The position numbers and the translations under genes were made by a program. Shown here piece by piece: positions 7,401-36,712 of a stretch of DNA of 64,000 bases (positions within the stretch are counted from its first letter, which is position 1; the number at the start of each line of letters is the position of its first letter). The stretch lies in assembly GCA_964522405.1 (NCBI GenBank), contig CAZFTR010000001.1:4602-68601 (forward strand), read 5' to 3'. The stretch comes from an uncultured Gammaproteobacteria bacterium (GTDB lineage Bacteria; Patescibacteriota; Patescibacteriia; Magasanikbacterales; UBA922). The notes under the pieces are model-generated. The model saw only the letters and a list, made by a program, of their open reading frames with translations. It had not been told where the DNA came from and searched no databases.

Positions 7401-10400
7401 TCTTGCTACAAACGCCAGATATAGATGGAGAGTACGTGCCTCTCTTGATCCAACTTCAGAATTGACTTCAGAATATGCCTATTCAAATTATGAGTTTAGT
7501 AAACCGCTTGCTCCAAGTAATTTTGCTTCAGAATTTGTAAGTGATAATCAGATTAATCTATCTTGGACAGATGATGTGCAATATGAGAGTGGATTTACAA
7601 TTTATGTTTCCGAGGATGGTAGTGAATATACTCCGATAACAATTGGAAACTCAACAACTACTGTTTCTCAAAATACTACAAATTATAGTTATGCTGATTC
7701 ATCCACAAATCATTCCTATAGTTTTAAGGCAAAATCATATATTGATGCTACAGCCAGTAACTCCGAGTTATTTTCAGATGATTCAGACATGACAGAAGTA
7801 ATTTATACATCACCTGTTGCGCCAACAATGTTAGCAGCAGTACCACTGAATTCAAGTAATATTCAATGGAATTTTACAGATAATTCAAATTATGAATTCG
7901 GGTATAAATTATTTACTGATGGGGGAGGAGAGATATTAAATTCAGAAAATGCAAATCTTGGCTCAATAGTTGAATCTGGCCTTTCTCCAAATACTGAATA
8001 TTCTCGTTATGTAACAACTTACAACAATTCAGGTTCTGCTTCTAGTGCAGTTACTTCAACTTATACAATCTCTGCAACTCCTTCAAACGGTCGTTCAATT
8101 TTCACATCTCAGACAGCTATAACAGTTGCCTGGGATGCAAATGGTAATCCTGATGGAACAGAATACTATATTGTCAATTCAAATACAGGTGCAAATTCCG
8201 GATGGGTAACAAAGCAAGAATTTGAGTTTAGTGATTTTAAATGTGGAAACAGTTATACTTTTGAAATAAAATCAAGAAACGCTCTAAGTCTCGAATCAAA
8301 TAATCATTCACTATCAATAAAAACAGATAATTGTTATGGTGGAGGAAGTCCAGCTACCCCACCTCCGGCATTGCCACCACCTCCAGAACCACCTAAGCCT
8401 GGAGATTTCAGCCTGGTTATAAATGAAGGTGAGCTGATTACAAACAATCTCACGGTAGTGCTTGCTATTGATGGAGGAGAAGATGCTATTATGATGGCTA
8501 TTTCAGAAGATGAAGGTTTTTTCGATACTTCTCAGATTCCATACAGTGAAGCATATGCTTTCCCATTATCAGAAGAAAATGGGACTAAGGTAGTTTATAT
8601 AAAGTTTTTTACAGAAGATGGAACTGAATCCCCAGTTATTTCTTCTGAAATTATTCTTGACACAGAAGCTCCGGAAATAATTGATCTAGAAATAGAAGAT
8701 GAATTTGAATTTGATCAAAATGTAATTGTAAAGGGAACTTCAGAAGCAGGAGCAAATATAATCCCAACTTTAAATAGTTCTCAAAAAACTGCAATTGAAA
8801 TTGATCAAGATGGAAATTGGGAAATTGATTTTGGTATTTTGGATTCAGGTGAATATATACTTGAACTGGTGACTAGAGATGGAGCTGGAAATGAGGGAGA
8901 TACTTATCTAGTTGCTTTTGTAGTTAATGAGGAGCCTATTGAAGAAGAGTCACAACCGCCGTCAGGAACAGCGACCACAACACCTGCGACAACTACCACT
9001 ACTCCGGAAGATGGCGAGGGCGGAGGATTGCCAGATCTTATAGACGAAGTTACAGACGTTATAGAAGATGTTCAGGATGCTGTGGACGAAACATATGAGG
9101 ATATAAAAGAAATAGTCAAAGAAATAATTCCATTGCCAGGACCACAAACAGGAGGTGAGTCTATAATTCCAACAGTGACCACCCAGAGCGGAAGTGAATT
9201 ATTAGGAGATGGACTATTGAGCTTTGGTTCAATAGGTCTGCCAAAAACATTTACAAATCTGGTTACCAGTTTCCCAACACTTGAAAAGACTTTTAGAGAT
9301 TTTGGAGTGAGAAATATAGCAGATCTTCATAGATTGCAGGGTGTAACTCTTGCTCTACCAACTATTGATGAACTTGTACCGGCTGATTCACTTGCTAAGT
9401 CAGCATTGGTTTTAGATACGCTTGAGGGATATACTATTGATGATTTAAGAGACGCTGCAGAAAAATTACCAACAGATGTAGTATTTTTTGAACTCAACAA
9501 TGGAAAGATTGCGCTTGCTCCGGTTGTAAATGGGGCATCATTTAGTGGAGAGGGTCCGACATTTAGAACTATACCAAATCAGGCTGTAAGCATGATTATA
9601 AGACCTTCAGAACCAGTTGAAACAATTACTTCACAGGTTGCGCTTAGAGAGCTTAGAACTAGGCAAGTTGCAGAAGCTCAAAAGAAAACAACCATACAAT
9701 CAGTAATTGATGCATTTGGGGAGACTGTCTCTGCTGTTCAGGTAAATGAAGTATCAGCAGCAGAAATAAAGGATCAAGATTTGGAAAGTACTCCTCAAGA
9801 TGAAAAAGGAAGATTTATTGTTGATCAAGTTGATTTTGAAGATTCAAATGATGATGGGGTTTATGTGGCAGATATAAATACTCCAGAAGTTTTTGGAAGT
9901 TTTGATATTATTACTGATGTTGATTATTCAACTCAGAAGAAGGACAATATCATTACCAATACCATGCTAATTGATCCTGAAGGTTATGTCTTTCACCAGA
10001 CAATTTCCGGAGAGGTTAGATTGGCAAATGCTAAAGTATCACTCTATCATTTTAGTGAAGAGTCTAGTGAATTTGAGCTTTGGGATGCAGAAAAATATGG
10101 ACAGGTAAATCCGCAGATTACAGATGATTCAGGAACTTATGCATTTTTAGTACCAGAAGGTCAGTATTATATTTCCGCACTTGCATCAACCTATAAACCA
10201 TATCAGTCACGAGGATTTACAGTACAGTCAAGTGGAAGAGGGGTACATATAAATATTGGACTTCAAAAATACTTTGATGTTGAACAATTCCTAAATATTG
10301 ATTATATAATTGTTACCATATTGATTGTCCTTTTAATACTTATGGTAAGAAGACTATTCAAAGGGATTAGAAAAATGAAAAAATACGATGATTATAATTA

Positions 10401-10401
10401 A
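1414..10401 (+). CDS. giant (2995 aa) cell-surface protein with an N-terminal signal/TM, six or more LamG (concanavalin-A-like, Laminin_G_3) repeats, several fibronectin-III-like domains, Pro-rich and Thr-rich linkers, and a C-terminal TM anchor
   Basis: Recurrent LamG motifs (L[KR][LI]Y[IV]NG..D) run with ALSFDGVDD...W.K and DE..IY.RALS..EI blocks at about aa 255, 520, 740, 975, 1380 and 1625. FN3-like SWTD/VGWQD segments lie at about aa 1850-2300. Linkers are PATPPPALPPPPEPPKPG and TATTTPATTTTTPEDGEGGG. The C-terminal hydrophobic helix IIVTILIVLLILMV is followed by RRLFKGIRKMKK. Confidence 0.8.
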   Translation: MNRLEKKTKPFLHISAFLTAAAFVVAFAFLFSDLHAVTKTWDFDSASDYTFDADYLKITDGKAGFVTFDQTDDDNTQTGFGGGTHTGTGWSASNNSLGIVTGTVALYWKFDEVSGNLVTDSSGSGMNGGLNQSDGFDNNWVLGKFANAFEFASSTSESFVAPTFNTKPNSELYTSDIFSVALWVRLDELVDNNFIDLFHRISGGISRLYMRVQPTHKISWSIWDGSPNWSGLVGNTTIEIDNWYYVVGTYDGENLKLYINGELDGSMANSNGIEQFDGNRIAGIATITGGPYGATQHLDGIVDDVQYYSRALSTEEILHNYINRPPAQQGIFESRVMNNYAASYWWSLAWNPKAPYGKELPDNPRMGLLMHFDEASGSTDFIDSSSGGNLISCSGTSCPLTGIASQLSTGAYFDGVDDKLVFSNSPTYNADEIKDFSFSTWVKSDLSQNGFHVIASGGLSDNSGWSVYTYKTASGAENVYFEIARPGYTTQYKIRGVSTQDDRFVFIGGTYDASTDELIIYKNGSGIVGYDSAGALTQAPGDVFEIGQRALHSGFSDFPFRGVIDEFTIYNKKLSDQEMRNLFVAQRQGAAMLDDNAPDRALVLHMNEAGGSSAFKDKSSYNNSASCSGNTCPVAGVEGQVGTALKFDGVDDYVEISGSSLEISDKLTMGLWVKPETSGSHKQLISKNPAPGSVSSYYLSLTALKPCVWLGQNMVGWKCSISAVPLNEWSYVAAVFDGRSLRIYINGVLDKTYSGLSGVIPTNPGTSVWLGNRPDLSGYMYKGGMDEITIFSKALSAEKILNIYNEQKIGKLGLENIASDRSLETAQYSASGANMTDNELLLHFNEASYSGTVDEVVDKSGNENHGLVVGGGDTVAYGKLNRAASFDGVDDSVTIADNNTLDTKESDLSIEAWIKPENVSQAGYIVTKRLNESPWTQWGVGIFDGSTNYGSGKKLVCTFGLTSGSGSYFHDVVTVDDILDGDWHHVVCRVDYGNNIEVFVDGVKVDTNIIRDQSWTSLENDEPITVGSGNGAFYYKGLIDEVAVYSRALLDEEVLDRYKRGAVRVKYQIRSCNDSACDGETYMGPDGTASTYYSELQNSFYSTPAIGLASVPNNTYFQYKAIFETENASYLPEISSVTAGPDHQSIGTFELMPAKASAVSFANIDSFTDQDVGLITGINDPVPYYQITNQGDQEMPSWYFWNGSSWAQTFNPDDSNTESEINTNISQFSTDIGTGKFLWKAFLKVIEAAKSLKLFQVEVDYNAPPTANVLETKGSAVYFDGENDYITIPDSEGFNFAGKTASVAFWFKVPNIEIINHMIDRQEGGYPGAGWYIGIRPNGRLHINHRATDDTINLYSTALVNDNQWHFGVITIDSADNLATMYVDGVLNSTDTFEGLIDKNDSFFIGTTGGGNSSYYFKGSVDEIAFYNYSLTQEEIDLYYNSGNGRRGLASDNGLISGWNFDEGAGDTAKDYGINANNGELYNGATWVPGKISETTNMYGPYPYFSSIFNDTKDSYKSALSFDGGGGYVELGKKLDEENITVLAWIKLDEHNYFNYITSNSRDCCAKYDGDELKVNEGGRLSGRIWNNDPAISDWNLVNAKLVSNQVLALDTWYQVAFTYDGSTMALYVNGELDNTKASTLGIGQPSSFNRTIGAMAMSPHNYNFRGDLDEVSIYDRALTAEEIATHYNGGNGRYGLATDSGLIGGWHFYEGAGNAVQDYSPYGNHGTIKNSLEWTTGVVNDHDYANKARIQVSTDPNFENITHWDSGVEGTTLPNFVVASERSKDIKYGSLGNGPIIDSFSMADGDITYYWRIKYWDHHGAEGIWSATSSFTMLDAPVAPGSVSAARVSDNEFTVGWQDLSTTEDKFVLERDYTLGAGGFMGWQKLTDLAPNITNYTDSSTEVDSKYKYRVKAVNQAGESIYTEDPIEHFTSPKAPTSVSSTYDGENAFTVSFTDTSAISNIHDVERCDDQICDNNIYMAVSGSPVSTSTFQDAGLATNARYRWRVRASLDPTSELTSEYAYSNYEFSKPLAPSNFASEFVSDNQINLSWTDDVQYESGFTIYVSEDGSEYTPITIGNSTTTVSQNTTNYSYADSSTNHSYSFKAKSYIDATASNSELFSDDSDMTEVIYTSPVAPTMLAAVPLNSSNIQWNFTDNSNYEFGYKLFTDGGGEILNSENANLGSIVESGLSPNTEYSRYVTTYNNSGSASSAVTSTYTISATPSNGRSIFTSQTAITVAWDANGNPDGTEYYIVNSNTGANSGWVTKQEFEFSDFKCGNSYTFEIKSRNALSLESNNHSLSIKTDNCYGGGSPATPPPALPPPPEPPKPGDFSLVINEGELITNNLTVVLAIDGGEDAIMMAISEDEGFFDTSQIPYSEAYAFPLSEENGTKVVYIKFFTEDGTESPVISSEIILDTEAPEIIDLEIEDEFEFDQNVIVKGTSEAGANIIPTLNSSQKTAIEIDQDGNWEIDFGILDSGEYILELVTRDGAGNEGDTYLVAFVVNEEPIEEESQPPSGTATTTPATTTTTPEDGEGGGLPDLIDEVTDVIEDVQDAVDETYEDIKEIVKEIIPLPGPQTGGESIIPTVTTQSGSELLGDGLLSFGSIGLPKTFTNLVTSFPTLEKTFRDFGVRNIADLHRLQGVTLALPTIDELVPADSLAKSALVLDTLEGYTIDDLRDAAEKLPTDVVFFELNNGKIALAPVVNGASFSGEGPTFRTIPNQAVSMIIRPSEPVETITSQVALRELRTRQVAEAQKKTTIQSVIDAFGETVSAVQVNEVSAAEIKDQDLESTPQDEKGRFIVDQVDFEDSNDDGVYVADINTPEVFGSFDIITDVDYSTQKKDNIITNTMLIDPEGYVFHQTISGEVRLANAKVSLYHFSEESSEFELWDAEKYGQVNPQITDDSGTYAFLVPEGQYYISALASTYKPYQSRGFTVQSSGRGVHINIGLQKYFDVEQFLNIDYIIVTILIVLLILMVRRLFKGIRKMKKYDDYN

Positions 10402-10826: not shown

Positions 10827-10900
10827 TTTTCTAAAAAAATTATAAACAGTCGCATTTCAAATGTGACTTTTTTGCTTTTAAAAACTATTACTTAAAAATT

Positions 10901-10972
10901 GCTTCGCCGTCCTCGCCTCTCTTGCTAATCTGCTTTCAGCATTAGCAAGGAGTCTGCGGATTGTCTCATCAA
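10901..10972 (+). repeat. copy 1 of a ~70-nt conserved intergenic element (candidate structured-RNA motif). The other copies are at 36644-36712 and 62304-62372
   Basis: Conserved 5' flank gcttcgccgtcctcgcc, a hairpin with stem CTTGCTAAT/ATTAGCAAG and constant loop CTGCTTTCAGC, and conserved 3' flank ctgcggattgtctcatc. Confidence 0.6.
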
Positions 10973-11039
10973 TCTTTAAGTAATACTTTTTAAAAGCAAA
11001 AATAAACTATATCTTGACCCAGCACCATAAGCCAGAGGG

Positions 11040-17703: not shown

Positions 17704-19329
17704 TCAATCCAATATGCCATCTGGGAGTTGTTTTTTTATAGAATTTTTATTTTTTAACAAGTATAAAGTATTATTTGGGTTCCAACCTTTGATTTTTTCT
17801 TGCTCAATAACGTCAAATCCTTCGATCGGAGAAAAACTCAGAGCATAATCAGAAGTATTATTCACAAAAACATGACGTATCCACCACGGGCTACCAACCG
17901 GACCATGGGTTTTGTCTGATTCCTGAGCCGACCAGTAAGATTGGAATCCATTCCATTCATATCCAGCATCAATATGGTAAGTTTCCAGATCTGATTTAAA
18001 TAAAATATTTTCAGCCATATTCCATCTGGTTTTGTTCCAATTCATATAAAATGAAGTTTGACTAATGCTAAATATGGCAAAAATTAATAAACAAGTTCCA
18101 ATGGCAATTTTCGATATTTCTTTTTCTTGTAATTTTGCAACTAAAAGGATTGAAATCACAAAGAAAATTGGTAGAAAATATCGATCAAAACTTACAAATA
18201 GTAGAATTGGAATTAAAAATAAAATTCCAAAGAGATATACAAAATTTAACTCCTGTTTTTTTTCAGTTTTGTTTCTTAAAATCATGTAAATCAACCATCC
18301 GGCACTGGCAGCAGATATAATGGTGATAATTCCCAGAATTTTACTCGGAATAAGAGATGTGAATTCACCTCGCAGAACTCCCTGCATCGGTCCAAGTCCA
18401 TTTAGATTTATGATATTTGCTACATAGGGAAATTGCAGTAGTTTAATTTGTCTTATTAGGATCGCAATTATAATTGGGATAAGGGTGGTAGCCAAAAGCA
18501 ATTTGTCTTTGATTTTATTCAAATTTTTAATTCCCCAAGAAATAGAAAAAGGTAAAACAAAAAAACCAATATAAACAAAACTATACCAGAGCCACCAGAG
18601 CCCATTTATCAGAGTTTTTTTCAATCCAGGAATTTCATGGAGAGTAAAAGTATCTGGCAGAAAACCATTTTTCCATAAAAACCAATAAATTAGACAACCG
18701 AGAATTGCTGGGATGCCATAACTCCATAATAGGTTTTTGAATTTGATGTTTTTTAATTGTGTTAGAGAATAAATTCCGGCTGCAATCATGGCAACAATAT
18801 TTGTTTGTCGTGTATATGTTCCAAGAACCACGACAAGTCCAGCAAATAGTAACCAAATCGCTTTTTTGCTTACAAATCCTCTGTAGTACAGGTAAACAGA
18901 TAAGACAATGAAGAAGAGCCCGGGAATATCTGTCATAAAAGTAAAAGACAGATTATAGAAAATTGGATTTAGCCAGATTATTAGCGCAGCAAATAAGGCG
19001 AGTTTTTGTTTTTTGGTTATTTCAGCAATTAATTGATATGTAAGTAGAAGTGTTGCAAGAGACAGTACTAAAGTTGAAATACGTAGAGCAGAAAAAGAAA
19101 AAGTAAAAATTTTAGAAATGCCAACTCCAATAAGAATTGGCACATAAAAAGTCGGTCCGGCAAATGGATTCATGCGAAATTCACCAGTATTTACCCAGTG
19201 TTTGATAATTTCAGAGTGAACCCAGTCATCGTTCAGTGCAAATTCTCCGATTGGTGAAATAAAAACAAATTGGAGTAGAAAAAGTCCAATTATGATTAGT
19301 TGATATTTGTATTTTTTTAGGAAGTGCAT
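17704..19329 (-). CDS. polytopic membrane protein with a C-terminal soluble domain, possibly an ArnT/PMT-like glycosyltransferase
   Basis: Ten or more hydrophobic helices. The true start is taken as MHFLKKYK at 19329; the tracked ORF's first 66 codons read through the GC-rich repeat and look spurious. The family assignment is tentative. Confidence 0.5.
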   Translation of the reverse strand: MHFLKKYKYQLIIIGLFLLQFVFISPIGEFALNDDWVHSEIIKHWVNTGEFRMNPFAGPTFYVPILIGVGISKIFTFSFSALRISTLVLSLATLLLTYQLIAEITKKQKLALFAALIIWLNPIFYNLSFTFMTDIPGLFFIVLSVYLYYRGFVSKKAIWLLFAGLVVVLGTYTRQTNIVAMIAAGIYSLTQLKNIKFKNLLWSYGIPAILGCLIYWFLWKNGFLPDTFTLHEIPGLKKTLINGLWWLWYSFVYIGFFVLPFSISWGIKNLNKIKDKLLLATTLIPIIIAILIRQIKLLQFPYVANIINLNGLGPMQGVLRGEFTSLIPSKILGIITIISAASAGWLIYMILRNKTEKKQELNFVYLFGILFLIPILLFVSFDRYFLPIFFVISILLVAKLQEKEISKIAIGTCLLIFAIFSISQTSFYMNWNKTRWNMAENILFKSDLETYHIDAGYEWNGFQSYWSAQESDKTHGPVGSPWWIRHVFVNNTSDYALSFSPIEGFDVIEQEKIKGWNPNNTLYLLKNKNSIKKQLPDGILD

Positions 19330-19441
19330 ATTGTAAATGCTTGTCTCGCCCAAAGGATGGGATCCCGTCCAGTGAAAATTGGCGGGAAAAGGCTTAAAAA
19401 GCCTGAGAGATGACAGCGCTGTTATCCATAGTCTCCATTGT

Positions 19442-19520
19442 CGCCCATTCCACGTTCGCCGACAAGGGACTAAGAACAGGCGGCGCGCGAGCACCAGCCA
19501 GGCGCGTGTTGATTTACCAG
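19442..19520. repeat. GC-rich 79-nt perfect direct repeat, copy 1
   Basis: Sequence cgcccattccacgttcgccgacaagggactaagaacaggcggcgcgcgagcaccagccaggcgcgtgttgatttaccag is identical to 19875-19953. It is about 60% GC in an AT-rich context. Confidence 0.9.
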
Positions 19521-20209
19521 CCACCACCTTTGTTGTCTCTGCGGTTGGCGATGTGACCTGACAACGCCAGAGGCCAGACGATCCAGGCGATGAGAGCCGG
19601 GAAGCTCAGAACTTCCTCCCTCGGCATGGGGTTCCGCCTCGACTTTTCCATGCCCAGGTCTTTGGCGATGTAGATCAGGGCGAAAATGCCCAAGAACAGG
19701 TATCCGGCCAGGATACTGAGAGCAATCAAATCACTGGTGCTCAAAACCTTTCCTCCTTTCGCGGTTTTGCAATGTTGATTATAACAGTAAATAATTTTTT
19801 TTTCTATGGTTGGTTTCCAAATAAAAACCCTCCTTTTTAAGGGGGTAATAATGGTTAAAATAGTTCCCTTTCGCCGCCCATTCCACGTTCGCCGACAAGG
19901 GACTAAGAACAGGCGGCGCGCGAGCACCAGCCAGGCGCGTGTTGATTTACCAGTCTCCTTTTTTTTCTTCTTTTCGTCTCTGATCTCGATCAGGTAGCCG
20001 GCCAACATGAAGGGGCCTGCCATCAGCCCGAAGAGCCAGATCATGACACCGAATTTACTGGTGTCGGTGGGATTTCTTTCTTCTTCGCCCTTGCCGTGGT
20101 CACCGGTGACGTACAAGAGGGCGCCGAAGCTGAGGATGGCGTAGCCCCCGACCAGGCTGAGAATCATCAGGGCAGTGCTCAAAGTTCTCTCCTTGTTGCG
20201 ATTTTGCAA
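19514..20209 (-). CDS. GC-rich tandem pair of paralogous small two-TM membrane protein ORFs (A ~19955-20194, B ~19514-19754), fused in one frame through an A8 tract
   Basis: The halves LSTALMILSLVGGYAILSFGALLYVTG... and LSTSDLIALSILAGYLFLGIFALIYIA... are clearly homologous. Each is preceded by a conserved leader, atcaaYattgcaaaaYcgc, then AAGGAG, then TTG. Half B stops at the TAA inside the 79-nt repeat (cTGGTAAatc). Half A is out of frame by one base within an A8 run (19959-19966) and reads through. Confidence 0.4.
   Translation of the reverse strand: MQNRNKERTLSTALMILSLVGGYAILSFGALLYVTGDHGKGEEERNPTDTSKFGVMIWLFGLMAGPFMLAGYLIEIRDEKKKKKETGKSTRAWLVLARRLFLVPCRRTWNGRRKGTILTIITPLKRRVFIWKPTIEKKIIYCYNQHCKTAKGGKVLSTSDLIALSILAGYLFLGIFALIYIAKDLGMEKSRRNPMPREEVLSFPALIAWIVWPLALSGHIANRRDNKGGGW
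19875..19953. repeat. GC-rich 79-nt perfect direct repeat, copy 2
   Basis: Exact 79/79 match to 19442-19520. It is followed on the minus strand by a terminator-like hairpin, ccccctTAAAAaggaggg plus a T-run (19822-19846). Confidence 0.9.
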
Positions 20210-20325
20210 TATTGATTCTAGCAGGAAATAAAATTATTGTCTACTTTGCTTATAAAGAAAAAAGCCTCACCCTAGAAAAGGCGAGGCATAGTTTTTACTA
20301 TTGTTCACTGTTTATTGATCATTGC

Positions 20326-21297
20326 TTACTGTTCAGGCTCCCAAAGATTAATATATTCAATAGCACTAAGCGCAGCAGTCGCACCTTGCCCAGCAGAAAT
20401 ACTAATTTGTTTAAAAGGAATATTAGTCACGTCTCCGGCAGCGAAAAGTCCAGTACAATTTGTTTTGCAGCGAATATCTACTTCTATTTCTTTTGCTTTG
20501 TTTTTACTGGCACATTCTACAAATCCGGAATTTGGGATCATGCCAATGTGGACCATGACACCATTTATTCCATCAACTTGTTTTTCTTCTTCTGATCCAT
20601 TTTCTTGGTATTTAATACCAGTTACCATTTCATTGCCAAGTATTTCAGAAGTAAAACTATTGTAAATTATTTCTACATTTGATTTTTCTTTTACTTTGTC
20701 TACTAAAATTGTTTCACCTTTTGGAAAGCCTCCTAGATTGGACTCTGGATACTTGGTAACTAGATAAACTTTTTCAGCAATTTCTGCCATCATTAGAGCA
20801 GATTCGAGAGCTGCATTTCCTGCTCCAATAGTTGCTGTTGTTTTTCCTTTGTAGAGTGGTCCGTCACAAACCGTACAAAAAGTCACGCCTTTGTTTTTGT
20901 ATTCATTTTCTCCGGGAATTTTCAGTTCTCTAGGGTGAATGCCACTGGCAACTATCACAGCTTTGGTCTGGTATTCTTTTTTTTCACCGGAAAAATTTTC
21001 TGCGTGAACTACATGGTAGTTTTTTACTTGTTCAATTGATTTTACTTCAAAGCCATTATCAAATTGCACTCCATAGGAAAGAGCATGCTTGTGGAAATTT
21101 TGGGAAAGTTCAATTCCAGAAATAGTTTCAGTTCCAGGCCAGTTCTCTACAACTCCAGACAAAGCAACTTCACCACCAATGTCTTTGCTGACCACCACAA
21201 AATTCAATTTTCTGCGAGCAGCATAAATTGCAGCAGTACAACCTGCAGCTGCAGCTCCGATGATCACTAGATCAAGCATTTTTTCTTGATTTTCCAT
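20326..21297 (-). CDS. trxB: thioredoxin-disulfide reductase
   Basis: FAD-binding motif VIIGAAAAGCTAAIYAARR, redox-active CTVCDG (CxxC), and a second dinucleotide-binding motif. Confidence 0.85.
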   Translation of the reverse strand: MENQEKMLDLVIIGAAAAGCTAAIYAARRKLNFVVVSKDIGGEVALSGVVENWPGTETISGIELSQNFHKHALSYGVQFDNGFEVKSIEQVKNYHVVHAENFSGEKKEYQTKAVIVASGIHPRELKIPGENEYKNKGVTFCTVCDGPLYKGKTTATIGAGNAALESALMMAEIAEKVYLVTKYPESNLGGFPKGETILVDKVKEKSNVEIIYNSFTSEILGNEMVTGIKYQENGSEEEKQVDGINGVMVHIGMIPNSGFVECASKNKAKEIEVDIRCKTNCTGLFAAGDVTNIPFKQISISAGQGATAALSAIEYINLWEPEQ

Positions 21298-21336
21298 ATT
21301 TCATTTATTAATTTAGGTCTATATAAGAGTAACAGT

Positions 21337-22014
21337 CTATTTTCCCTTGGTCAAGCTGTCGATAAGTTGATTTAAGTCTTCAACATTTTCTTTTATAGTT
21401 TTTTCAGTATGAAAAACCGCACTCCCGGGACAAATTGCATCAACACCACTGGTGGAAATGTCTGGAATAGTTTCCAGATTTACTCCACCATCAAGAGAAA
21501 CAAACAGATCAGGATATTTTTCTTTTAGGTTTTTAATTCTTTCAGTGGTTTCCGGAATATACTTTTGCTTTTGAAAGCCCGGGACTACGCCCATGAACAT
21601 AACCGCATCAAGCTCTGAAATAAATTCATCTAAAACATCAATTGAGGTATCAGGATTGAGAACAATTCCAACCTTATGTCCTAGATTTTTTATAGAATTA
21701 ATAGTTTCAGCAATTTCAGTTTTCTCTACAGCTTCATAGTGAAATAAAACCCTTTTAATTTGGTGAACATCAGCCCATTTTGCAGTTTCTTCTACCGGGT
21801 TTGAGGTCATAAGATGAAGTTCAGCATCAATTTTCAGAAGTTCCTTGGTAACTTTCGGATCTCGCCAAGTGGTATTTGGTACAAATTTTCCATCAGCAAT
21901 ATCAATTTGAACCATTTTTATATATTTTTGTACCTCAAGAATCTGCTGGGTAAATTCTTCTTTTGATTGTACAAGTAAAGATGGAATTATCTGCATATCA
22001 CTCTTATTTTTCAA
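21337..22014 (-). CDS. rpe: ribulose-phosphate 3-epimerase
   Basis: Motifs MQIIPSLL, ELHLMTSNP and DGGVN match Rpe. The true start is probably the internal Met at 21996; the annotated start overlaps rpiB. Confidence 0.8.
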   Translation of the reverse strand: MKNKSDMQIIPSLLVQSKEEFTQQILEVQKYIKMVQIDIADGKFVPNTTWRDPKVTKELLKIDAELHLMTSNPVEETAKWADVHQIKRVLFHYEAVEKTEIAETINSIKNLGHKVGIVLNPDTSIDVLDEFISELDAVMFMGVVPGFQKQKYIPETTERIKNLKEKYPDLFVSLDGGVNLETIPDISTSGVDAICPGSAVFHTEKTIKENVEDLNQLIDSLTKGK

Positions 22015-22456
22015 GTTCTGCTACTTTGCCAAGTCTGCGTATATGTCGCTCATCACCACTAAATTCAGTTTCAAGCCATTTTTTGACCATTGCCAGGTGG
22101 TGATCTTCGCTTCCGAGTTTGGCTGCAAGGCAAAGCACATTAGTATTGTCATCTAGAACCATAGTCTCTGCAGCAGATAGATTATATCCAATTCCAGCCC
22201 GCACACCATTTACTTTGTTTGCAGCAATACAGACACCAACTCCATTTTTACAGATTAGAATTCCTCGTCCATTAGTTTCAGCGACTTTTTGAGCTAGCGG
22301 AATTGCATAATCCGGATAATCATCTGTTTCAATGTATTCAAAAGGGCCTAAATCTTCAATTTCAAGTTTGAGTTCGTTTTCAAGATAGCGAATAATCCGT
22401 TTTTTTAGTTGATATCCTCCATGATCTGATCCTATAAATAGCTTTCCTTGGTACAT
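22004..22456 (-). CDS. rpiB: ribose-5-phosphate isomerase B
   Basis: GSDHGGYQLK and ...CKNGVGVCIAANK match RpiB/LacAB. Confidence 0.85.
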   Translation of the reverse strand: MYQGKLFIGSDHGGYQLKKRIIRYLENELKLEIEDLGPFEYIETDDYPDYAIPLAQKVAETNGRGILICKNGVGVCIAANKVNGVRAGIGYNLSAAETMVLDDNTNVLCLAAKLGSEDHHLAMVKKWLETEFSGDERHIRRLGKVAELEK

Positions 22457-22591
22457 AATATATTGTTTATATTTAACTAGAAAAAATACTGTGATTATAT
22501 TGTAGCATAGAGATAGTTTGTGATAAAGGGAGTTTATGATTAGGTGAAATTGTGTTATAGTTTAACCAATATCGACTACATGGGGAGATGT

Positions 22592-22756
22592 ATGGTTTCC
22601 AGGTTGGGAAAGGAGCCGGTGGTGCTGGTCAAGGTTGTCTGGGGCGGGCTCAGCCCGGAGGATATTGCGGTTTACCGTCAAATCGCTAGGGACACAGTGG
22701 AGCGTTCCAAGCAAAATCGCTGCCATGGATGCGGCAGACCAAAGAAGGGGGAATGA
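22592..22756 (+). CDS. GC-rich small ORF (54 aa), possibly the product of a ~260-nt GC-rich transcript; could instead be a non-coding RNA
   Basis: A TG-extended -10 (tgtTATAGT) near 22545-22556, SD GGGGAGA 5 nt before ATG 22592, and an intrinsic terminator at 22795-22822. The protein MVSRLGKEPVVLVKVVWGGLSPEDIAVYRQIARDTVERSKQNRCHGCGRPKKGE has no recognised family. Confidence 0.35.
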   Translation: MVSRLGKEPVVLVKVVWGGLSPEDIAVYRQIARDTVERSKQNRCHGCGRPKKGE

Positions 22757-22794
22757 TGGGGGGCGCCACTCCATCTCGGATTGGCAAACTCGAA

Positions 22795-22822
22795 AAAACA
22801 TGAGAGAATCATGTTTTTTTGA
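22795..22822 (+). terminator. intrinsic terminator
   Basis: aaaaaaCATGAgagaaTCATGttttttt. Confidence 0.65.
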
Positions 22823-22843
22823 TATTAAATTTATCAAAACAAA

Positions 22844-22868
22844 AAAACAGCTTTTGCTGTTTTTCAGT
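22844..22868. terminator. bidirectional intrinsic terminator, likely ending the convergent minus-strand GC-rich gene
   Basis: aaaaaaacAGCttttGCTgttttt. Confidence 0.55.
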
Positions 22869-22959
22869 ACTTCCTAAAAATTCAAAAAAAATACTAAGGA
22901 AGGGGTGGGGCGGAAGGAATCACGGCGGGAGTCGCTGCGATCATCGCCCCGAGGGGGGA

Positions 22960-23631
22960 CTAGGCATCGATGGCCTCGAAGATCTGGGATCTGGGGCGGT
23001 CGGGGAGGGCGCGGGGCATGGCGTCGAGGGTCGTCATGTCCGCGTACCAGGCCTGCATGTAGCCGGTGGGACGGTGTTGGTCAGCGCTCGGCGCCGAGGC
23101 CTGGGCTCGGCTCTGGAGCAGGACGGCATTGAGCCGTTCCGGGTCGTTCTGGAACATCCAGAGCAGGAACTTCATCTGAAGCGCCTCCTCCTGGCTCATC
23201 TGGGGGATCTGGCCCGGACTGACCTTGGAGATCCGCTGACCCATGGTACGGAACAGGCCGTCGGCAGCCCTCAGCGCGGCCAGACGGTGCATCATGTTCT
23301 GGTTGTCCGGTTCCACCACTTGACTGCTCTCTTCGAGCGAAGCCCGCACCTTTTCCGGAATCTCTTCGCCGGCGGTTTCGTTGCCAGTGAAGATCAGGCG
23401 GTAGCGTGTCCGTTGACCCACGGGGATCTCGAGAATCAGTGCCAGCGGCGGGTTTTGGGCGATGGTGTACTCCAGGTAACACTCGATCATGTTTTCCGGA
23501 TCCTTGACTCCGGAGTCAGGGGGCTTGCTGTCTTCGTACGACTTCATGGCATTGTGCCAGTGCCAGAGAGTCAAGAAGAAGCCCAGGATCAGGACTGTGA
23601 TGAGGAGAGTCAGGAGGGTGAGAGAGTCCAT
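22960..23631 (-). CDS. GC-rich hypothetical protein with an N-terminal TM anchor (224 aa)
   Basis: Start MDSLTLLTLLITVLILGFFLTLW is preceded by AAGGAGG. Amino-acid composition is protein-like, whereas the overlapping plus-strand ORFs are G/R/L-rich antisense artefacts. About 58% GC. Confidence 0.55.
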   Translation of the reverse strand: MDSLTLLTLLITVLILGFFLTLWHWHNAMKSYEDSKPPDSGVKDPENMIECYLEYTIAQNPPLALILEIPVGQRTRYRLIFTGNETAGEEIPEKVRASLEESSQVVEPDNQNMMHRLAALRAADGLFRTMGQRISKVSPGQIPQMSQEEALQMKFLLWMFQNDPERLNAVLLQSRAQASAPSADQHRPTGYMQAWYADMTTLDAMPRALPDRPRSQIFEAIDA

Positions 23632-23759
23632 ATCGTGCCTCCTTGAGGCTTCCGGTTCTAGTCTGTTCAGTATTGTTGTCTTTTTTTGATAAAAAGTCAA
23701 GTCTGGAGTTTAGATTGACAAAACAACAATTTTGTCCTAATATGGGTATACAATTATAA

Positions 23760-23935
23760 AAGCGCAATACTCGCTATCAACGAGGATTCTGAGTCTCAGA
23801 AGCGCTGAAAGAAGAAAAACTTATATAAAGTTTAGTAGAATTTTCCGGGTAAGCCCGTAATAGCAGAAATTAAGAGCCACTTTGGAAGTGAGATGGTACC
23901 GCCCGATATTGGGTTCTCATGTGAGTGGTTTTTTA
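23760..23935 (+). promoter_or_regulatory. candidate T-box riboswitch leader of ileS
   Basis: A ~180-nt structured leader contains GAGAUGGUACCGCCCG, which resembles the T-box core (UGGUACCGC, 23895-23903), then a hairpin plus U-run near 23905-23934. ileS is the classic T-box-regulated gene. An Ile codon candidate (ATC, 23776-23778) sits in a loop context. Confidence 0.5.
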
Positions 23936-24083
23936 TTTATTATTAGTAAATTTGTTTAACCGTATTTATTATAAAATTCAACTCAGCTCTACAGAAATAA
24001 TTTGATATTCAGTTTAAATTGATCGCTCAACGTTTCATTTTATAATAAATACGGTTAAATTAACTCAAGCTATTAATTCATGT

Positions 24084-27053
24084 ATGCCTTACGAATCAAA
24101 TAAACATGAACTTGAAATAAAAAAGTTCTGGGACAACAACAAAATTTTTGAAAAATCTATAAATGAGCGTCCGGAAGATCAGCCCTATGTTTTTTATGAT
24201 GGTCCACCATTTGCAACCGGCTTGCCACATTATGGACATATAGTTGCCAGTTTGATGAAAGATGTTGTTCCCAGATATTGGACTATGCAAGGAAAGCGGG
24301 TTGAGCGTCTTTGGGGTTGGGATTGTCATGGTTTGCCGATTGAAAATATTGTTGAAAAAGAAATTGGATCAAAAAGTAAACAAGATATTGAAGAAATGGG
24401 AGTTGAAAAATTCAATGAGTCCTGTCGCTCAAAAGTTTTACATTATATAGATGAATGGAAAAGGACTATTCAAAGACTTGGACGCTGGGTTGATATGGAC
24501 AATGCCTACAAAACCATGGACAAAGATTATATGGAGTCAGTTTGGTGGGTTTTCAAAGAGCTTTGGGACAATGGTTTTGTTTATAAAGGATATAAATCAA
24601 TGCATGTTTGTCCACGTTGTGAGACAACACTTTCTCAGCAAGAAGTAAGTGAAGGTTACAAAGACATAAAAGATCTTTCCGCAACTGTAAAGTTTAAAAT
24701 TACCTCTACAATTTCAGATATTCATCAAGACCTGGGTGTGTGTAATGATCTCTTTGTTCTAGCTTGGACAACTACCCCTTGGACACTTCCTGGAAATGCC
24801 CTTTTGGCAGTTGGTGAGGATATTGAATATACAGTTGTTAAATTTGAAGGCTCTTGTTATGTGGTTGCCAAAGAAAGATTAATTGAAGTTTTTGATGAAA
24901 GAGAATTTGAAGTTGTTCAGCAATTAAAAGGAAAAGACCTGTTAGGTTTGGAATATGAGCCATTGTTTCCATATTATACTGATACAGAAAATGCTTTTAA
25001 GGTTGTGGCAGGAGATTTTGTAAGCACAGAAGAAGGAACAGGCGTGGTGCATATAGCTCCGGCTTTTGGTGAGGATGATTATCAAACAGGAAAAAAAGAA
25101 AAAACCGGCTGGGTCCAGCATGTTTCAATGAATGGAAAATTTAAGCCGGAAGTTGCAGATTTTGCAGGTCAGCAAGTTAAGCCAATAGAAGATCCTCAAA
25201 AAACAGATATAGAAATAATTAAATGGCTTGCTCACAATGAAAAGTTATTTTCAAAGAAAAAATATCTACATAGTTATCCGCATTGTTGGAGATGTGACAC
25301 CCCTCTAATAAATTACGCAACAGATTCCTGGTTCGTAAATGTAGAAAAATTAAAAAAGGACGCGCTTAAACATGCCAAAGAAATAAATTGGTCTCCAGAA
25401 CATATGAAAGAGGGGCGTTTTGGGAAGTGGCTAGAAGGAGCACGAGATTGGTCAATTTCTCGCCAGCGTTTTTGGGCATCAGTAATTCCAATTTGGGAAT
25501 GTGATAAGACAGGTGAATTTCATGTTATCGGTTCTGTAGAAGAACTTGAGAAATTAACCGGAGAAAAAATAGAAGACCTACATAAGCATACAGTAGATAA
25601 ACTAACTTGGAAAAATCAAAAAACAGGAGGAACTATGAAACGAATTCCAGATGTTCTTGATTGTTGGTTTGAAGCAGGTTCAATGCCTTACGCCCAAGTT
25701 CATTATCCATTTGCCAATCAAGAAAAATTTGAAGCAAGTTTTCCAGCAGAATTTATTGCCGAAGGACAAGATCAAACACGAGCCTGGTTTTATTATCTGC
25801 ATATTATTGCAACAGGTGTAAAACAAAAACATGCATTTAACAATGTGGTGGTAAATGGAATAGTTCTAGCAGAAGACGGAAAGAAGATGAGTAAGAAATT
25901 ACAAAATTATCCAGACCCAATGGTTGTGCTGGAGAAATACGGAGCAGATGCGCTTAGATACTACTTGGTGAGTTCACCGGTGATGCAAGCAGAAACTTTG
26001 AATTTTTCAGAAGAAGGTGTTCGAGAAGTTTTTAATAAGGTTGTCAATACACTTTGGAATGTAGGTAGTTTTTATGAGATGTTTGCAGATGAAAATTCAA
26101 AGTTCGATTTAGAATTGGCAAAGAATTCAAAAAATGTTTTGGATAAATGGATACTTGCCAAACTACATAGATTGCTTGAAGAAGTTACAAAAGAAATGAA
26201 TGAATACAGACTTAATGATGCATCTCGCCCAATTTTAGATTTTATATTAGATCTTTCACAGTGGTATGTGCGCAGATCAAGAGATAGATTTAAAGGTGAT
26301 GATGAAGAAGATAAAAAAGCAGCACTTGCTACGCTCCATGAAGTTCTTTTAACTCTTTCAAAAATCATGGCACCGTTTACTCCGTTTATTGCAGAGAAGA
26401 TTTATAAAGAAGTTGGTGGTGAGAAAGAATCTGTTCATTTGGATATGTGGCCAGAGGTGGATCAAAATATTTTGCTAGCAAACACGAATCTCTTAGTGGA
26501 TATGGAATCAGTCAGAGAAGTAGTTAAGCTTGGAAATTCTCTTAGAAAAGAAAACTCATTGAAAGTTAGACAGCCGCTTGCAAGTTTAAAAGCAGTTGCT
26601 ACTCTCTCAGGAGATAAAGATTATCTTGAGCAATATCAAAAAATTATTTCAGAAGAATTAAATATTAAGAAAGTTGAGTTAAGAAATTTACCTGGAAATA
26701 AAGAAATGGAAGAGATGAGAAGTTTGGCAAATGATAAAATTAAAGTTGCCGAAGATCAAAGATCTATCGTAGTCCTTAACACAGAAATAACCCCACAACT
26801 CGCCAAAGAAGGACTTCTCCGCGAAACAATCCGCGCCATAAATCAAATCAGAAAACAACAAGGCTTGATAATGCATGACCAAGTTCTTGTAGAATTTTCA
26901 ACAGAAGATAAAGTATTAAATGAAATCTTTACAAAAGCAGAATTTGCAGAAGAATTAAAAAAACAAACACTCACAAGTGAAATCAAATCAGGTGGAACTG
27001 AAGAAATAGAAATAGATAAAAGAAAAATTAAGATAATTGTGAAAAAAGCGTAA
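24084..27053 (+). CDS. ileS: isoleucine--tRNA ligase
   Basis: HIGH motif PHYGHI, KMSKS motif KMSKKL, WSISRQRFWAS and the Zn-binding CPRCE segment. 989 aa. Confidence 0.9.
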   Translation: MPYESNKHELEIKKFWDNNKIFEKSINERPEDQPYVFYDGPPFATGLPHYGHIVASLMKDVVPRYWTMQGKRVERLWGWDCHGLPIENIVEKEIGSKSKQDIEEMGVEKFNESCRSKVLHYIDEWKRTIQRLGRWVDMDNAYKTMDKDYMESVWWVFKELWDNGFVYKGYKSMHVCPRCETTLSQQEVSEGYKDIKDLSATVKFKITSTISDIHQDLGVCNDLFVLAWTTTPWTLPGNALLAVGEDIEYTVVKFEGSCYVVAKERLIEVFDEREFEVVQQLKGKDLLGLEYEPLFPYYTDTENAFKVVAGDFVSTEEGTGVVHIAPAFGEDDYQTGKKEKTGWVQHVSMNGKFKPEVADFAGQQVKPIEDPQKTDIEIIKWLAHNEKLFSKKKYLHSYPHCWRCDTPLINYATDSWFVNVEKLKKDALKHAKEINWSPEHMKEGRFGKWLEGARDWSISRQRFWASVIPIWECDKTGEFHVIGSVEELEKLTGEKIEDLHKHTVDKLTWKNQKTGGTMKRIPDVLDCWFEAGSMPYAQVHYPFANQEKFEASFPAEFIAEGQDQTRAWFYYLHIIATGVKQKHAFNNVVVNGIVLAEDGKKMSKKLQNYPDPMVVLEKYGADALRYYLVSSPVMQAETLNFSEEGVREVFNKVVNTLWNVGSFYEMFADENSKFDLELAKNSKNVLDKWILAKLHRLLEEVTKEMNEYRLNDASRPILDFILDLSQWYVRRSRDRFKGDDEEDKKAALATLHEVLLTLSKIMAPFTPFIAEKIYKEVGGEKESVHLDMWPEVDQNILLANTNLLVDMESVREVVKLGNSLRKENSLKVRQPLASLKAVATLSGDKDYLEQYQKIISEELNIKKVELRNLPGNKEMEEMRSLANDKIKVAEDQRSIVVLNTEITPQLAKEGLLRETIRAINQIRKQQGLIMHDQVLVEFSTEDKVLNEIFTKAEFAEELKKQTLTSEIKSGGTEEIEIDKRKIKIIVKKA

Positions 27054-27679: not shown

Positions 27680-28141
27680 CTATCGCTTGCCGTACTTTTT
27701 ACGCAGGCTGCGACGCTCGATTTCGCGCTCCAGGAGATCCACCGCTTTTTTGGCTTCCTTGAGCCACCAGTGGCGGATGTCATGGATGTTGCCTTCTTTC
27801 AGGCACTTCCAGAGGAGCCAGAGCCAGTACTGGGTACCGTCTTCTTCGCCGTAGATCAGCGTTTCGAACGGTTCGGGGAGGTTGAAGCCCCCGTCCTTGT
27901 GCTCGGTCATCTCGAATCCCTTGTCGCCATTCTCAACTGCTGCGGCGACCAGGTCGACGAGTCTGTCCTCTCTGCGGTAGAGCTGTCTCTCCTCGCGCAT
28001 GACAGCGAGGAAATCAGTCCAGTCCTCCATGTACGCGGGGACGTAACTGAGGAACTGCTCACTCATCTCACCCACCCAGTGCTCGTGCCTATCAGCAACG
28101 AATTCCGTGTAGGAGAGATCCAAAAACTCTCTTCTATCCAT
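27680..28141 (-). CDS. GC-rich hypothetical protein (153 aa)
   Basis: Protein-like, Trp-rich acidic sequence. SD GGAG lies 7 nt before the ATG, and the 5' leader has a GC hairpin CCCCGGC-acggg-GCCGGGG at 28162-28180. About 57% GC. Confidence 0.55.
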   Translation of the reverse strand: MDRREFLDLSYTEFVADRHEHWVGEMSEQFLSYVPAYMEDWTDFLAVMREERQLYRREDRLVDLVAAAVENGDKGFEMTEHKDGGFNLPEPFETLIYGEEDGTQYWLWLLWKCLKEGNIHDIRHWWLKEAKKAVDLLEREIERRSLRKKYGKR

Positions 28142-36582: not shown

Positions 36583-36643
36583 ATATGTTTTTATATTTAT
36601 TTCTTCTTTGGTTATAATTTTAGAGTATATTTTATTAAACTAG

Positions 36644-36712
36644 CTTCGCCGTCCTCGCCTCTCTTGTTGATTTGCTTTCAGCATCAACAAGGTGGCTGTG
36701 GATTGTCTCATC
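36644..36712 (+). repeat. copy 2 of the ~70-nt conserved intergenic element
   Basis: gcttcgccgtcctcgcctct-CTTGTTGAT-ttgctttcagc-ATCAACAAG-gtggctgtggattgtctcatc. The stem carries compensatory changes relative to copy 1. Confidence 0.6.

Follow-up and report, generated by a model that had tools for sequence, protein, structure and literature searches.

A GC-rich accessory islet of foreign composition, likely acquired horizontally, between rpiB and ileS of an AT-rich Patescibacteria genome

Why should a short, GC-rich segment separate two housekeeping genes in the AT-rich genome of a small groundwater bacterium of the Patescibacteria (CPR)? In the 64-kb stretch of DNA analyzed here (the window), the intergenic stretch between rpiB and ileS, 22545-23700, is 55.2% GC against 37.2% for the window as a whole. 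It lies among rpiB, rpe, trxB and ileS, and within its 1.1 kb two units converge, their intrinsic terminators standing back to back; a housekeeping gene flanks it on either side. An initial annotation had noted a gene for a membrane-anchored protein with a small unit of the plus strand running toward it, a layout that the individual sequence elements confirm, and had likened it to a toxin/antitoxin or immunity module. The sharp GC boundaries it reported are real, although its figure of ~58% GC is too high; likewise, the terminators are back to back as described, but lie about 20 rather than ~25 nt apart. The segment looks imported in base composition, in codon usage and in its ribosome-binding site, and is therefore most likely an acquired islet, not a toxin-antitoxin module. 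Its features and borders are these:

22004..22456 (-): rpiB, native context and left border of the slot (PF02502, E 1e-40; GC3 0.23)
22457-22575: rpiB upstream region, 24% GC
22553..22561 (+): TG-extended -10 TGTTATAGT of the small unit, read directly from the sequence
22576-22789: body of the plus-strand unit (unit 2a), 58% GC
22582..22587 (+): Shine-Dalgarno (SD)-like GGGGAG, only 4 nt ahead of ATG 22592
22592..22756 (+): putative 54-codon ORF MVSRLGKEPVVLVKVVWGGLSPEDIAVYRQIARDTVERSKQNRCHGCGRPKKGE, ATG at 22592
22790-22896: terminator spacer, 22% GC
22790..22822 (+): intrinsic terminator of the plus-strand unit (A-run, 14-pair stem, T-run; terminator scan)
22842..22865 (-): intrinsic terminator of the 223-aa gene (A-run, 10-pair stem, T-run; terminator scan)
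22897..22959 (-): GC-rich 3' untranslated region of the 223-aa gene, 63 nt, 70% GC
22960..23631 (-): coding sequence of the 223-aa orphan protein P0001, 61% GC, ATG at 23631, product beginning MDSLTLLTLLITV
23560..23622 (-): predicted membrane anchor LTLLTLLITVLILGFFLTLWH, codons 4-24 (hydropathy and AF2)
23638..23644 (-): SD AAGGAGG, 6 nt 5' of the ATG; the 5' untranslated region is 56% GC
23666-23747: divergent promoter region, 29% GC
23672..23700 (-): AT-rich, sigma-70-like promoter TTGACT-17-AACAAT of the 223-aa gene (promoter scan)
23715-23743: ileS/T-box promoter TTGACA-17-TAATAT, back to back with the promoter of the 223-aa gene
23748..23921 (+): ileS T-box leader, native context and right border of the slot (RF00230, E 4e-7, at 40.5 bits under the Rfam gathering score)

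The GC borders are abrupt and coincide with the transcribed bodies of both units. Because the promoter and terminator spacers are host-like (22-29% GC), the GC-rich domain amounts to the transcribed bodies themselves. Each terminator is an A-run, a stem and a T-run, and both are therefore potentially bidirectional; the two hairpins may insulate the units from each other, from rpiB and from ileS.

The 223-aa ORF is a real gene. Its GC content by codon position is.62/.41/.82, whereas the 275-aa ORF antisense to it has the wrong pattern (.74/.42/.58). It would be expressed as a monocistronic message, running from the sigma-70-like promoter through a 5' untranslated region of ~35 nt with AAGGAGG, 223 codons and the 63-nt 3' untranslated region to its own terminator. 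The membrane-anchored ORF, its AAGGAGG and its terminator had been described correctly, the reported 224 aa having included the stop codon. In P0001, Kyte-Doolittle hydropathy over 19 residues reaches its maximum of 2.62 at residue 4, and AF2 places a helix at residues 2-34 with a pLDDT of about 86, in a model that, built on a two-sequence alignment, has an overall pLDDT of 46.7. The inferred topology is that of a bitopic membrane protein in which a single anchor helix at the N-terminus precedes a largely helical soluble part of ~195 residues. Our guess is that the N-terminus lies outside and the bulk in the cytoplasm, since P0001 and the single homologue described below both have an acidic residue 2 and no Lys or Arg ahead of the helix. 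Neither product of the islet had been assigned to a recognized family, and this still stands: both are without a family match in Pfam, NCBIfam, PHROGs (hits of E 0.008 or weaker) and PADLOC, PDB sequence-profile searches gave none, and Foldseek against the PDB gave none at E up to 0.001. With low confidence, we suggest that P0001 is not a toxin but an accessory protein associated with the envelope and specific to the lineage.

The plus-strand unit does contain the TG-extended -10, SD, 54-aa ORF and terminator attributed to it, while the coding status of the ORF is undecided and we treat it as a doubtful gene. Its -35 is weak (TTTATG, 3/6) and below the threshold of our consensus scan, which for that reason missed the extended -10. 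The ORF is weakly coding-like in GC by codon position (.60/.46/.66) and hydrophilic, with VVLVKVVW as its longest apolar run. A helix-turn-helix look of GLSPEDIAVYRQIARDTVERS found no support in the AF2 models of the two products; that of the 54-aa ORF is one helix at pLDDT 61. Homology searches with the 54/58-aa ORF returned zero candidate homologues, Pfam gave no match, and the ORF is absent as a called protein from the protein collection, no gene caller reporting one. That record, an SD-to-ATG distance of only 4 nt, a promoter-like element of its own and a strong terminator would all suit a non-coding RNA of about 250 nt, acting on the convergent gene or elsewhere. We hold such an RNA to be decidedly unlikely. 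The plus strand of the body (22570-22789) has no Rfam match at E up to 5, and without the terminator its folding energy equals that of shuffles (z = 0.01); the only plus-strand Rfam match in the vicinity, to STnc40 (22803-22864; 18.6 bits against a gathering score of 45; E 4.5), spans the terminator hairpins. There is no complementarity to the mRNA of the 223-aa gene beyond the terminator region, the related locus L002 has no counterpart of the unit, and the order GC3>GC1>GC2 fits a coding sequence.

Could the two units nevertheless form a poison/antidote or peptide/immunity pair? In type I toxin-antitoxin systems, the toxin is a membrane-active peptide of under 60 aa and an antisense RNA overlaps its mRNA. 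Loci such as hok/sok and tisB/istR are like the islet in pairing a small transcript with a membrane-protein gene on opposite strands of an intergenic region, and the layout here, with a small unit converging on such a gene and adjacent terminators, is what invites the comparison. In the islet, by contrast, a 223-aa protein anchored by one helix is the sole hydrophobic product, and the small ORF would encode a hydrophilic peptide; each transcript stops at its own terminator (22790-22822 and 22865-22842), short of any overlap, and there is no extended complementarity between the bodies. A type II pair would be co-transcribed and carry toxin or antitoxin domains; these genes are convergent, not co-transcribed, and neither product matches a profile in PADLOC, Pfam, NCBIfam or PHROGs. 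A bacteriocin with its immunity protein might be read into the GG at residues 18-19 and the CxxC near the C-terminus of the 54-aa ORF, both read from the sequence. The GG, however, is not in a recognizable double-glycine leader context, the peptide has no homologue, and the neighbors are rpiB, rpe, trxB and ileS, with no peptidase-containing ABC exporter nearby. Moreover, the only related locus offers no homologue of the small unit here: the ORFs of 65 and 135/139 aa that converge there on the larger gene are unrelated to the 54-aa ORF, and Smith-Waterman alignment with shuffles found the latter unlike the 65-aa and 139-aa ORFs of L002 and a 75-aa ORF of another relative, L003. The likeness to a toxin/antitoxin or immunity module does not survive these observations. 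We regard such a pair as very improbable and read the islet as neither a defence nor a toxin module, with a function not assignable from sequence.

The departure of the locus from its host is far beyond chance. GC3 lies between 0.19 and 0.35 in all native ORFs of at least 100 aa (45/45), and is 0.82 in the 223-aa ORF. Relative synonymous codon usage (RSCU) of this gene correlates negatively with that of the window core (r = -0.58) and positively with the core of a relative of 57% GC (r = +0.65), a core against which that relative's own homologue, P0002, gives r = +0.66. GC1, GC2 and the amino-acid composition of the protein also fit a high-GC proteome; a preference for C- over G-ending codons, also considered, did not discriminate between candidate donors. 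Translation signals differ as well. An SD-like core precedes 7/7 islet ORFs, while a GGAG/GAGG core stands before any candidate start in only 2/45 native genes, even with alternative starts allowed. In published work, about half of Parcubacteria are reported to lack the anti-SD motif (PMC9297842). The foreign character that the initial annotation had implied is thus borne out by GC3, by codon usage and by the use of SD.

Such a departure could also be produced by an assembly chimera or contamination, in which GC-rich foreign reads are joined into an AT-rich contig, a caveat the same annotation had raised. Composition jumps at four boundaries, and the organism has been sampled once. An independent Logan assembly, however, yields an identical 5.1-kb contig over window positions 19924-25030, reproducing both outer junctions. 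The GC-rich bodies sit between suitably placed AT-rich promoters and terminators, a homologue occupies the same slot of another genome that was assembled twice elsewhere, and the four islets of the window (see below) are all intergenic with intact neighbors. An artefact of this kind is hardly credible.

The same annotation had asked whether the islet genes might prove to be widespread CPR core genes. They do not: across 1.84 billion representative proteins and 5.8 billion clusters, searched with the single sequence, a two-sequence profile and exhaustive HMMER, P0002 is the only homologue of P0001 found, at 30% identity (E 7e-11 in the search, 9e-19 pairwise). A further candidate, P0003, was a spurious repeat-protein match. 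P0002 is a 230-aa hypothetical protein on the groundwater CPR contig ERZ978281 k127_761715, also Ga0076004_104, so that its locus (L002/L024) has been assembled twice, from another site. It resembles P0001 over nearly its full length, with the same N-terminal anchor helix (the hydropathy maximum is at residues 4-22 in both) and the shared motif V-x-P-G-x-I-P-Q-x-x-x-x-E-A-x-Q. It lies, moreover, in the same slot, between ileS and rpiB-rpe, and converges on small ORFs. Unlike the window host, its genome is 57% GC, and its GC3 of.74 matches the core of that genome (.63-.75).

What fills the slot varies among relatives. In L004 it is empty, the 268 nt holding only promoter and T-box, and in L016 it is empty at 79 nt; in L003 it holds unrelated orphan genes, for which hhalign against A1 found no similarity. 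Family scans of the L002 and L003 slot ORFs gave no match. The islet gene is thus absent from this site in L003, L004 and L016, and has its homologue there in L002/L024. These last are as near to the window as L003 in 4/5 flanking proteins, with identities of 76% for rpiB, 48% for rpe, 64% for trxB and 53% for pepA.

This distribution brings in vertical descent. The gene may have been in the slot already in the common ancestor with the L002 lineage, evolving fast to its present 30% identity; its GC-richness would be upheld at the transcript level, by some local process or by selection in favor of mRNAs that are GC-rich, stable, or SD-dependent and specially translated. Several observations speak for it. 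The slot of the only homologue is the same one, and so are its orientation to ileS and rpiB and its convergent partner arrangement; its lineage stands as near to the window as L003 does in those 4/5 proteins, and for a same-slot homologue vertical descent is simpler than two independent insertions. The GC-rich domain is the transcribed body, flanked by a host-like promoter and host-like terminators, and host-like spacers are not what one would expect had a donor fragment simply been transferred. The gene also carries an SD in both genomes, both cores being without. Against this, no known bacterial mechanism keeps synonymous sites at 82% GC in a 24% genome, and GC1, GC2 and amino-acid composition, too, are those of a high-GC proteome. 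The trait is common to the untranslated regions and coding sequences of four islets that are unrelated, two of which (islets 1 and 3) L002/L024 lack at the corresponding junctions. Vertical descent would also need several losses to account for L003, L004 and L016, whose slots are either empty or otherwise occupied. We consider it unlikely.

Horizontal acquisition remains our preferred account: the segment is probably a small accessory islet of foreign composition, taken up into the rpiB / ileS T-box slot of an AT-rich, non-SD genome, and is best read as an accessory cassette, foreign in composition, in a slot of recurrent insertion. The 223-aa gene would most likely have come by horizontal transfer from a donor of ~60% GC. 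As to its source, no donor sequence was found, and the single homologue belongs to a related CPR genome whose GC would suit a donor. Since this only homologue sits in the same slot of a higher-GC CPR genome, and its GC3 matches the core of that genome, the most plausible donor would be a relative from the same CPR family with a higher GC content. The islet genes of the L002-type relative carry an SD and its core genes do not, and they may therefore be foreign there too. The convergent second unit, with its extended -10, 54-codon ORF and own terminator, may have arrived together with the 223-aa gene or been inserted alongside it. No function of the 223-aa protein finds support in homology or in a confident structure (pLDDT 46.7).

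How would such an islet compare with known mobile DNA? Neither an integrase or transposase gene nor a tRNA lies beside it, and there is no convincing target-site duplication; the only flanking repeat, the 11-nt direct repeat TTTTTTTGATA, is borderline against shuffles. Genomic islands and transferred genes have been documented in groundwater CPR, mostly exchanged between Patescibacteria and mostly unannotated (PMC12455944). The islet shares with those islands a compact CPR host, deviant composition, mostly unannotated genes and the likely traffic among Patescibacteria. It departs from them in its size of 1.1 kb, its one or two genes, its lack of mobility genes, the extreme contrast to its host (GC3.82 vs.24), its use of SD, and in having its only homologue in the same slot. 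Moron-like cassettes of phages and islands offer another parallel, being self-contained promoter-gene-terminator units of deviant composition between unrelated genes. In contrast to these, the islet has no prophage context, and IMG/VR, GenBank phages and PLSDB plasmids hold no relative, leaving a phage or plasmid origin unsupported. One candidate, L025, proved to be a phage protease that shares an 8-mer by chance.

The islet is not alone. At least four GC-rich islets occur in the 64-kb window, all of them intergenic with intact flanking genes, and the ORFs of all four have SD-like motifs and no close homologue. Islets 1 and 3 are missing from L002/L024 at the corresponding junctions. Among the ORFs of the other islets, a GCS2 match in islet 4 is the only family match. 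Sequence comparison ruled out a relationship of the islets to each other or to any of the other loci compared, and flanking repeats considered as target-site duplications were inconsistent across islets. It is tempting to speculate that the islets form a distinct class of self-contained, GC-rich, SD-led orphan cassettes, occupying a few intergenic slots of AT-rich, otherwise non-SD CPR genomes, although we regard this as a long shot. Such cassettes might have been taken from a high-GC partner or host, or have been adjusted to one, and their composition would then serve as its fingerprint. Alternatively, SD-dependent translation and GC-rich transcripts might mark a separately regulated set of genes.

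P0001 and P0002, a two-member family without a known fold, are candidates for a lineage-specific envelope component. If the islets are indeed acquired, about 8% of a 64-kb stretch of a streamlined CPR genome would consist of recently imported, self-contained orphan genes, which bears on how easily tiny symbionts take up and retain foreign DNA. Their SD translation signals would then be unlike those of the host, and this bears on whether such cells are able to translate an SD-led message in the first place. Should the islets be a class of their own, a shared slot and an SD kept in genomes 20% GC apart would point to function, not accident.

The window belongs to an AT-rich genome (37.2% GC over the window) that housekeeping proteins place in the Patescibacteria (CPR); the closest ileS matches come from Magasanikbacteria-like and other Patescibacteria MAGs, at 59-60% identity. 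Between rpiB and ileS lies islet 2, a stretch of 55% GC (22545-23700) whose GC-rich parts are the bodies of two convergent units, at 22576-22789 (58%) and 22897-23665 (56-70%). The spacers between and around these bodies have 22-29% GC and hold the promoters and both terminators. Every element that the initial annotation had listed for the islet (the -10, the GGGGAG, the 54-codon ORF, the AAGGAGG, the 223-codon ORF and the hairpins) was found:

22004-22456, minus strand: rpiB, the left flank of islet 2
22553-22561: TG-extended -10, TGTTATAGT, of the small plus-strand unit
22582-22587: GGGGAG of the small unit
22592-22756: 54-codon ORF of the small unit
22790-22822, plus strand: hairpin and T-run
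22865-22842, minus strand: hairpin
23631 (ATG) to 22960 (end), minus strand: 223-codon ORF
23638-23644: AAGGAGG, 6 nt ahead of the ATG at 23631
23700-23672: promoter-like TTGACT-17-AACAAT
23748-23921: T-box leader of ileS, the right flank of islet 2
24084: start of ileS

We reject an assembly artefact or chimera, and with it the contaminant or chimeric insert that the initial annotation had named as a refuting alternative, as an independent Logan assembly of SRR8146441 reproduces the whole islet with its flanks. Its 5,107-bp contig is identical to window 19924-25030, covering trxB, rpe, rpiB, all of islet 2 and the first 315 codons of ileS, and it ends inside a 102-nt repeat of the neighbouring islet, as expected of a repeat-limited assembly.

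Both hairpins have an A-run ahead of the stem and a T-run behind it, so each could terminate in both directions. From this anatomy we propose a model where two insulated monocistronic units are parked between two native divergent promoters, and where the bidirectional hairpin pair would end both units, with no read-through into each other, rpiB or ileS. The initial annotation had likened the arrangement to a toxin-antitoxin or immunity module, a reading that fails on every defining feature that could be tested: islet 2 has no small hydrophobic toxin, overlapping antisense RNA, bicistronic pair, matching domains or exporter. The 223-aa unit is bracketed by an 11-nt direct repeat, TTTTTTTGATA (22814-22824 and 23681-23691), which is borderline against mononucleotide shuffles (shuffled maximum 11, 95th percentile 9), and by a 20-nt imperfect inverted repeat (22830-22849 and 23674-23693); no comparable flanking repeats were found at other islets. 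In the adjoining ileS leader (23748-24083), the T-box reaches only 40.5 bits, short of the gathering score of 93. Between its terminator and the ileS ATG sits a 28-nt inverted repeat (23955-23982 and 24032-24059, 93% complementary), an insert that the relative L004 does not have.

The islet 2 gene looks foreign in the window genome by three independent measures: third-codon-position GC (GC3), codon usage and Shine-Dalgarno (SD) sequence. GC3 lies between 0.19 and 0.35 in every one of the 45 native ORFs that reach 100 aa, and between 0.57 and 0.82 in the islet ORFs. In RSCU the 223-aa gene runs counter to the window core genes (r = -0.58) and follows the core of a 57%-GC relative (r = +0.65) as closely as genes native to that relative do (0.66-0.72). 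A GGAG/GAGG core at a suitable distance precedes all seven ORFs of the GC-rich islets and only 2 of the 45 native genes, even when starts anywhere in the first 40 codons are admitted for the latter. Native window genes are thus essentially without SD sequences. The starts of rpiB and ileS were confirmed by alignment with relatives, and neither has an SD in any of the three genomes examined. In a published survey, about half of the Parcubacteria had no detectable anti-SD motif (PMC9297842); the 64-kb window contains no rRNA. Core genes of two related loci, L002 and L003, likewise lack SD motifs.

The 223-aa ORF is a real gene, with GC of.62/.41/.82 at the three codon positions, a profile typical of coding DNA from a GC-rich genome. 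An antisense 275-aa ORF and an out-of-frame 133-aa ORF were rejected as genes for their wrong codon-position patterns. Among all 1.84 billion representative proteins searched, the product has one true relative, a 230-aa protein (P0002) with 30% identity (E 7e-11 over residues 18-194; pairwise BLASTP E 9e-19); this speaks against widespread CPR core genes, which the initial annotation had considered. The other match, the repeat protein P0003, aligns in six stretches of 30 residues and was discounted as spurious. No further relatives came out of 5.8 billion clusters in word-indexed searches, whether the query was the single sequence or a two-sequence profile. The 223-aa protein has no match in Pfam, NCBIfam, PHROG, PADLOC or PDB sequences. 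Its AlphaFold2 model from the two-sequence alignment (pLDDT 46.7) is confident only in the anchor helix, and owing to this low confidence Foldseek returned nothing at E up to 0.001. With family scans of both islet products and the structure search blank, the earlier view that neither belongs to a known family holds. The two relatives share scattered invariant positions, including V-x-P-G-x-I-P-Q-x-x-x-x-E-A-x-Q, and each has one strongly hydrophobic N-terminal helix (Kyte-Doolittle maximum at residues 3-4) and no second one. Of the 223-aa protein nothing more can be said than that this helix tethers it to the membrane. In both proteins residue 2 is acidic and no K/R stands ahead of the helix, which by the positive-inside rule would favour a cytoplasmic location for the bulk of the 223-aa protein.

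The nature of the small unit is less clear. Of all frames in its region, the 54-codon one shows the most coding-like distribution of GC over the codon positions (.60/.46/.66), which over 55 codons is weak evidence of coding, and only 4 nt separate GGGGAG from the ATG. The ORF has no homologue and no family match, and its absence from a 15-billion-protein collection means that no pipeline has called it; its predicted structure is a single helix of low confidence. RNA folding of the whole unit gives z = -2.6, a value that stems entirely from the terminator, as z is 0.01 without it. The body has no plus-strand Rfam match. A small protein and a non-coding or non-functional transcript are about equally probable.

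The gene for P0002 lies on a 16-kb groundwater contig (L002; ERZ978281, Rifle project PRJNA268031), whose sequence is also found, 99.99% identical, within a 92-kb JGI contig (L024). This genome has the gene order trxB-rpe-rpiB | ileS-pepA in common with the window, and its proteins are, IleS excepted, at least as similar to those of the window as are those of L003, an AT-rich Magasanikbacteria MAG (JAZDMW010000012).

Table. Protein identity to the window.
RpiB: L002/L024 76%, L003 70%
Rpe: L002/L024 48%, L003 36%
TrxB: L002/L024 64%, L003 63%
PepA: L002/L024 53%, L003 50%
IleS: L002/L024 48%, L003 59%

In L024 (8839-9713) the trxB homologue aligns as two fragments, residues 7-254 and 292-322, that do not share a frame, which suggests a frameshift or sequencing error.

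With the ileS leader on one side and rpiB on the other, the P0002 gene fills the very same slot. It converges on two small ORFs (65 and 135/139 aa) that bear no detectable similarity to the 54-aa ORF by BLAST or by Smith-Waterman with shuffles. Core genes there have 55-60% GC and GC3 of.63-.75, so the P0002 gene (GC3.74) is not an outlier in its own genome at synonymous sites. In L003 the rpiB-ileS gap of ~1.27 kb contains a pair of unrelated orphan ORFs whose GC is intermediate (GC3.43-.53), one with GGAGG; in L004 it is 268 nt, with promoter and T-box only, and in L016 (Uhrbacteria) 79 nt. These contents make the slot a recurrent site of accessory genes in this group.

By its base composition, choice of codons and SD sites, the islet 2 DNA probably took shape elsewhere, in a genome of roughly 60% GC, and P0002, the sole homologue, makes the higher-GC members of the same CPR family its probable source pool. 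Horizontal import from such a relative is the most likely origin, as islet 2 has the composition and the presence/absence pattern of a horizontally acquired islet, although it carries no mobility hallmarks and has no identified donor. It is intriguing, however, that for a gene whose import looks recent the only homologue, at 30% identity, sits in the same slot of a relative, since independent insertions into one slot are improbable. Homologous recombination could have replaced the gene only across homologous flanks, of which there is no sign, as the spacers resemble the host. Nor does simple fragment transfer predict that the GC-rich domain coincides with the transcribed body, or that slot genes keep SD sequences in two genomes without them; in the L002/L024 genome, too, slot genes have SD-like sequences and core genes do not. 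For the shared slot, the GC-rich transcribed body and the SD retention, we retain as a serious alternative the vertical descent of a lineage-specific gene with a transcript that is held GC-rich, but such descent leaves a GC3 of.82 unexplained.

Among the loci scanned, segments more than 15% GC above the local mean occur only in the window genome, L003 and the L002/L024 genome. The window has four, one of which is also on the Logan contig (L001). Besides islet 2, the islets are:

19318-20240, minus strand: islet 1, a tandem pair of cassettes, each for a two-helix membrane protein of ~77 aa
27060-28966: islet 3, ORFs of 153 and 100/107 aa and long GC-rich non-coding stretches
46094-47131: islet 4, a GCS2-like ligase

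These three have GC3 of.57-.76, each with an SD-like motif, and no sequence relation was found among them or to islet 2. Islets 1 and 3 are missing from the corresponding L002/L024 junctions. The islet 1 cassettes resemble each other in promoter and 5'UTR; each has an SD, AGGAGG or AGGAG, and a ~77-aa ORF whose product has two hydrophobic helices. Although their proteins are only 33% identical, the two copies are 100% identical over a ~80-nt stretch that opens at the last codons (CTGGTAA...), pointing to gene conversion or a constrained 3' element. The stretch matches nothing in Rfam, and neither as DNA nor as RNA does it form a hairpin of marked stability. Islet 3, between ileS and pepA, has minus-strand orphan ORFs of 153 aa (27680-28141) and 100/107 aa (28570-28872/28893), whose 5'UTRs have 57 nt in common at 77% identity, and within these a hairpin that bears a compensatory change (CCCCGG..CCGGGG versus CCCTGG..CCAGGG); its non-coding stretches (~580 and 310 nt) have no Rfam match. 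At the same junction, just upstream of pepA, L003 has its own GC-rich islet (7481-8202, 54% versus 37%) with a 185-aa orphan ORF of GC3.69. Islet 4, between native genes, encodes a 330-aa GCS2-like carboxylate-amine ligase (GC3.57, AGGAGG site), which matches PF04107 (E 1e-5) and TIGR02048 (E 4e-8) far below cut-offs. Elsewhere, a 120-nt AT-rich palindromic intergenic element occurs at 10876-10995, 36618-36737 and 62278-62397, oddly regular at 25,742 and 25,660 nt apart; copies are 67-76% identical to the reference copy, and two have 33-nt arms, 94-97% complementary, with 68 nt between. A single native ORF of 2,995 aa (1414-10401, GC3.22) contains internal repeats.

Islands and transferred genes in groundwater Patescibacteria reflect mostly within-phylum exchange and are mostly unannotated (PMC12455944), and a horizontal origin of islet 2 fits this evidence. 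Islet 2 demonstrates no new mechanism; it merits a note for the sharpness of its contrast, the SD dichotomy and the shared slot, and is best regarded as a small islet of acquired orphan genes in a CPR genome, with a two-member orphan protein family.
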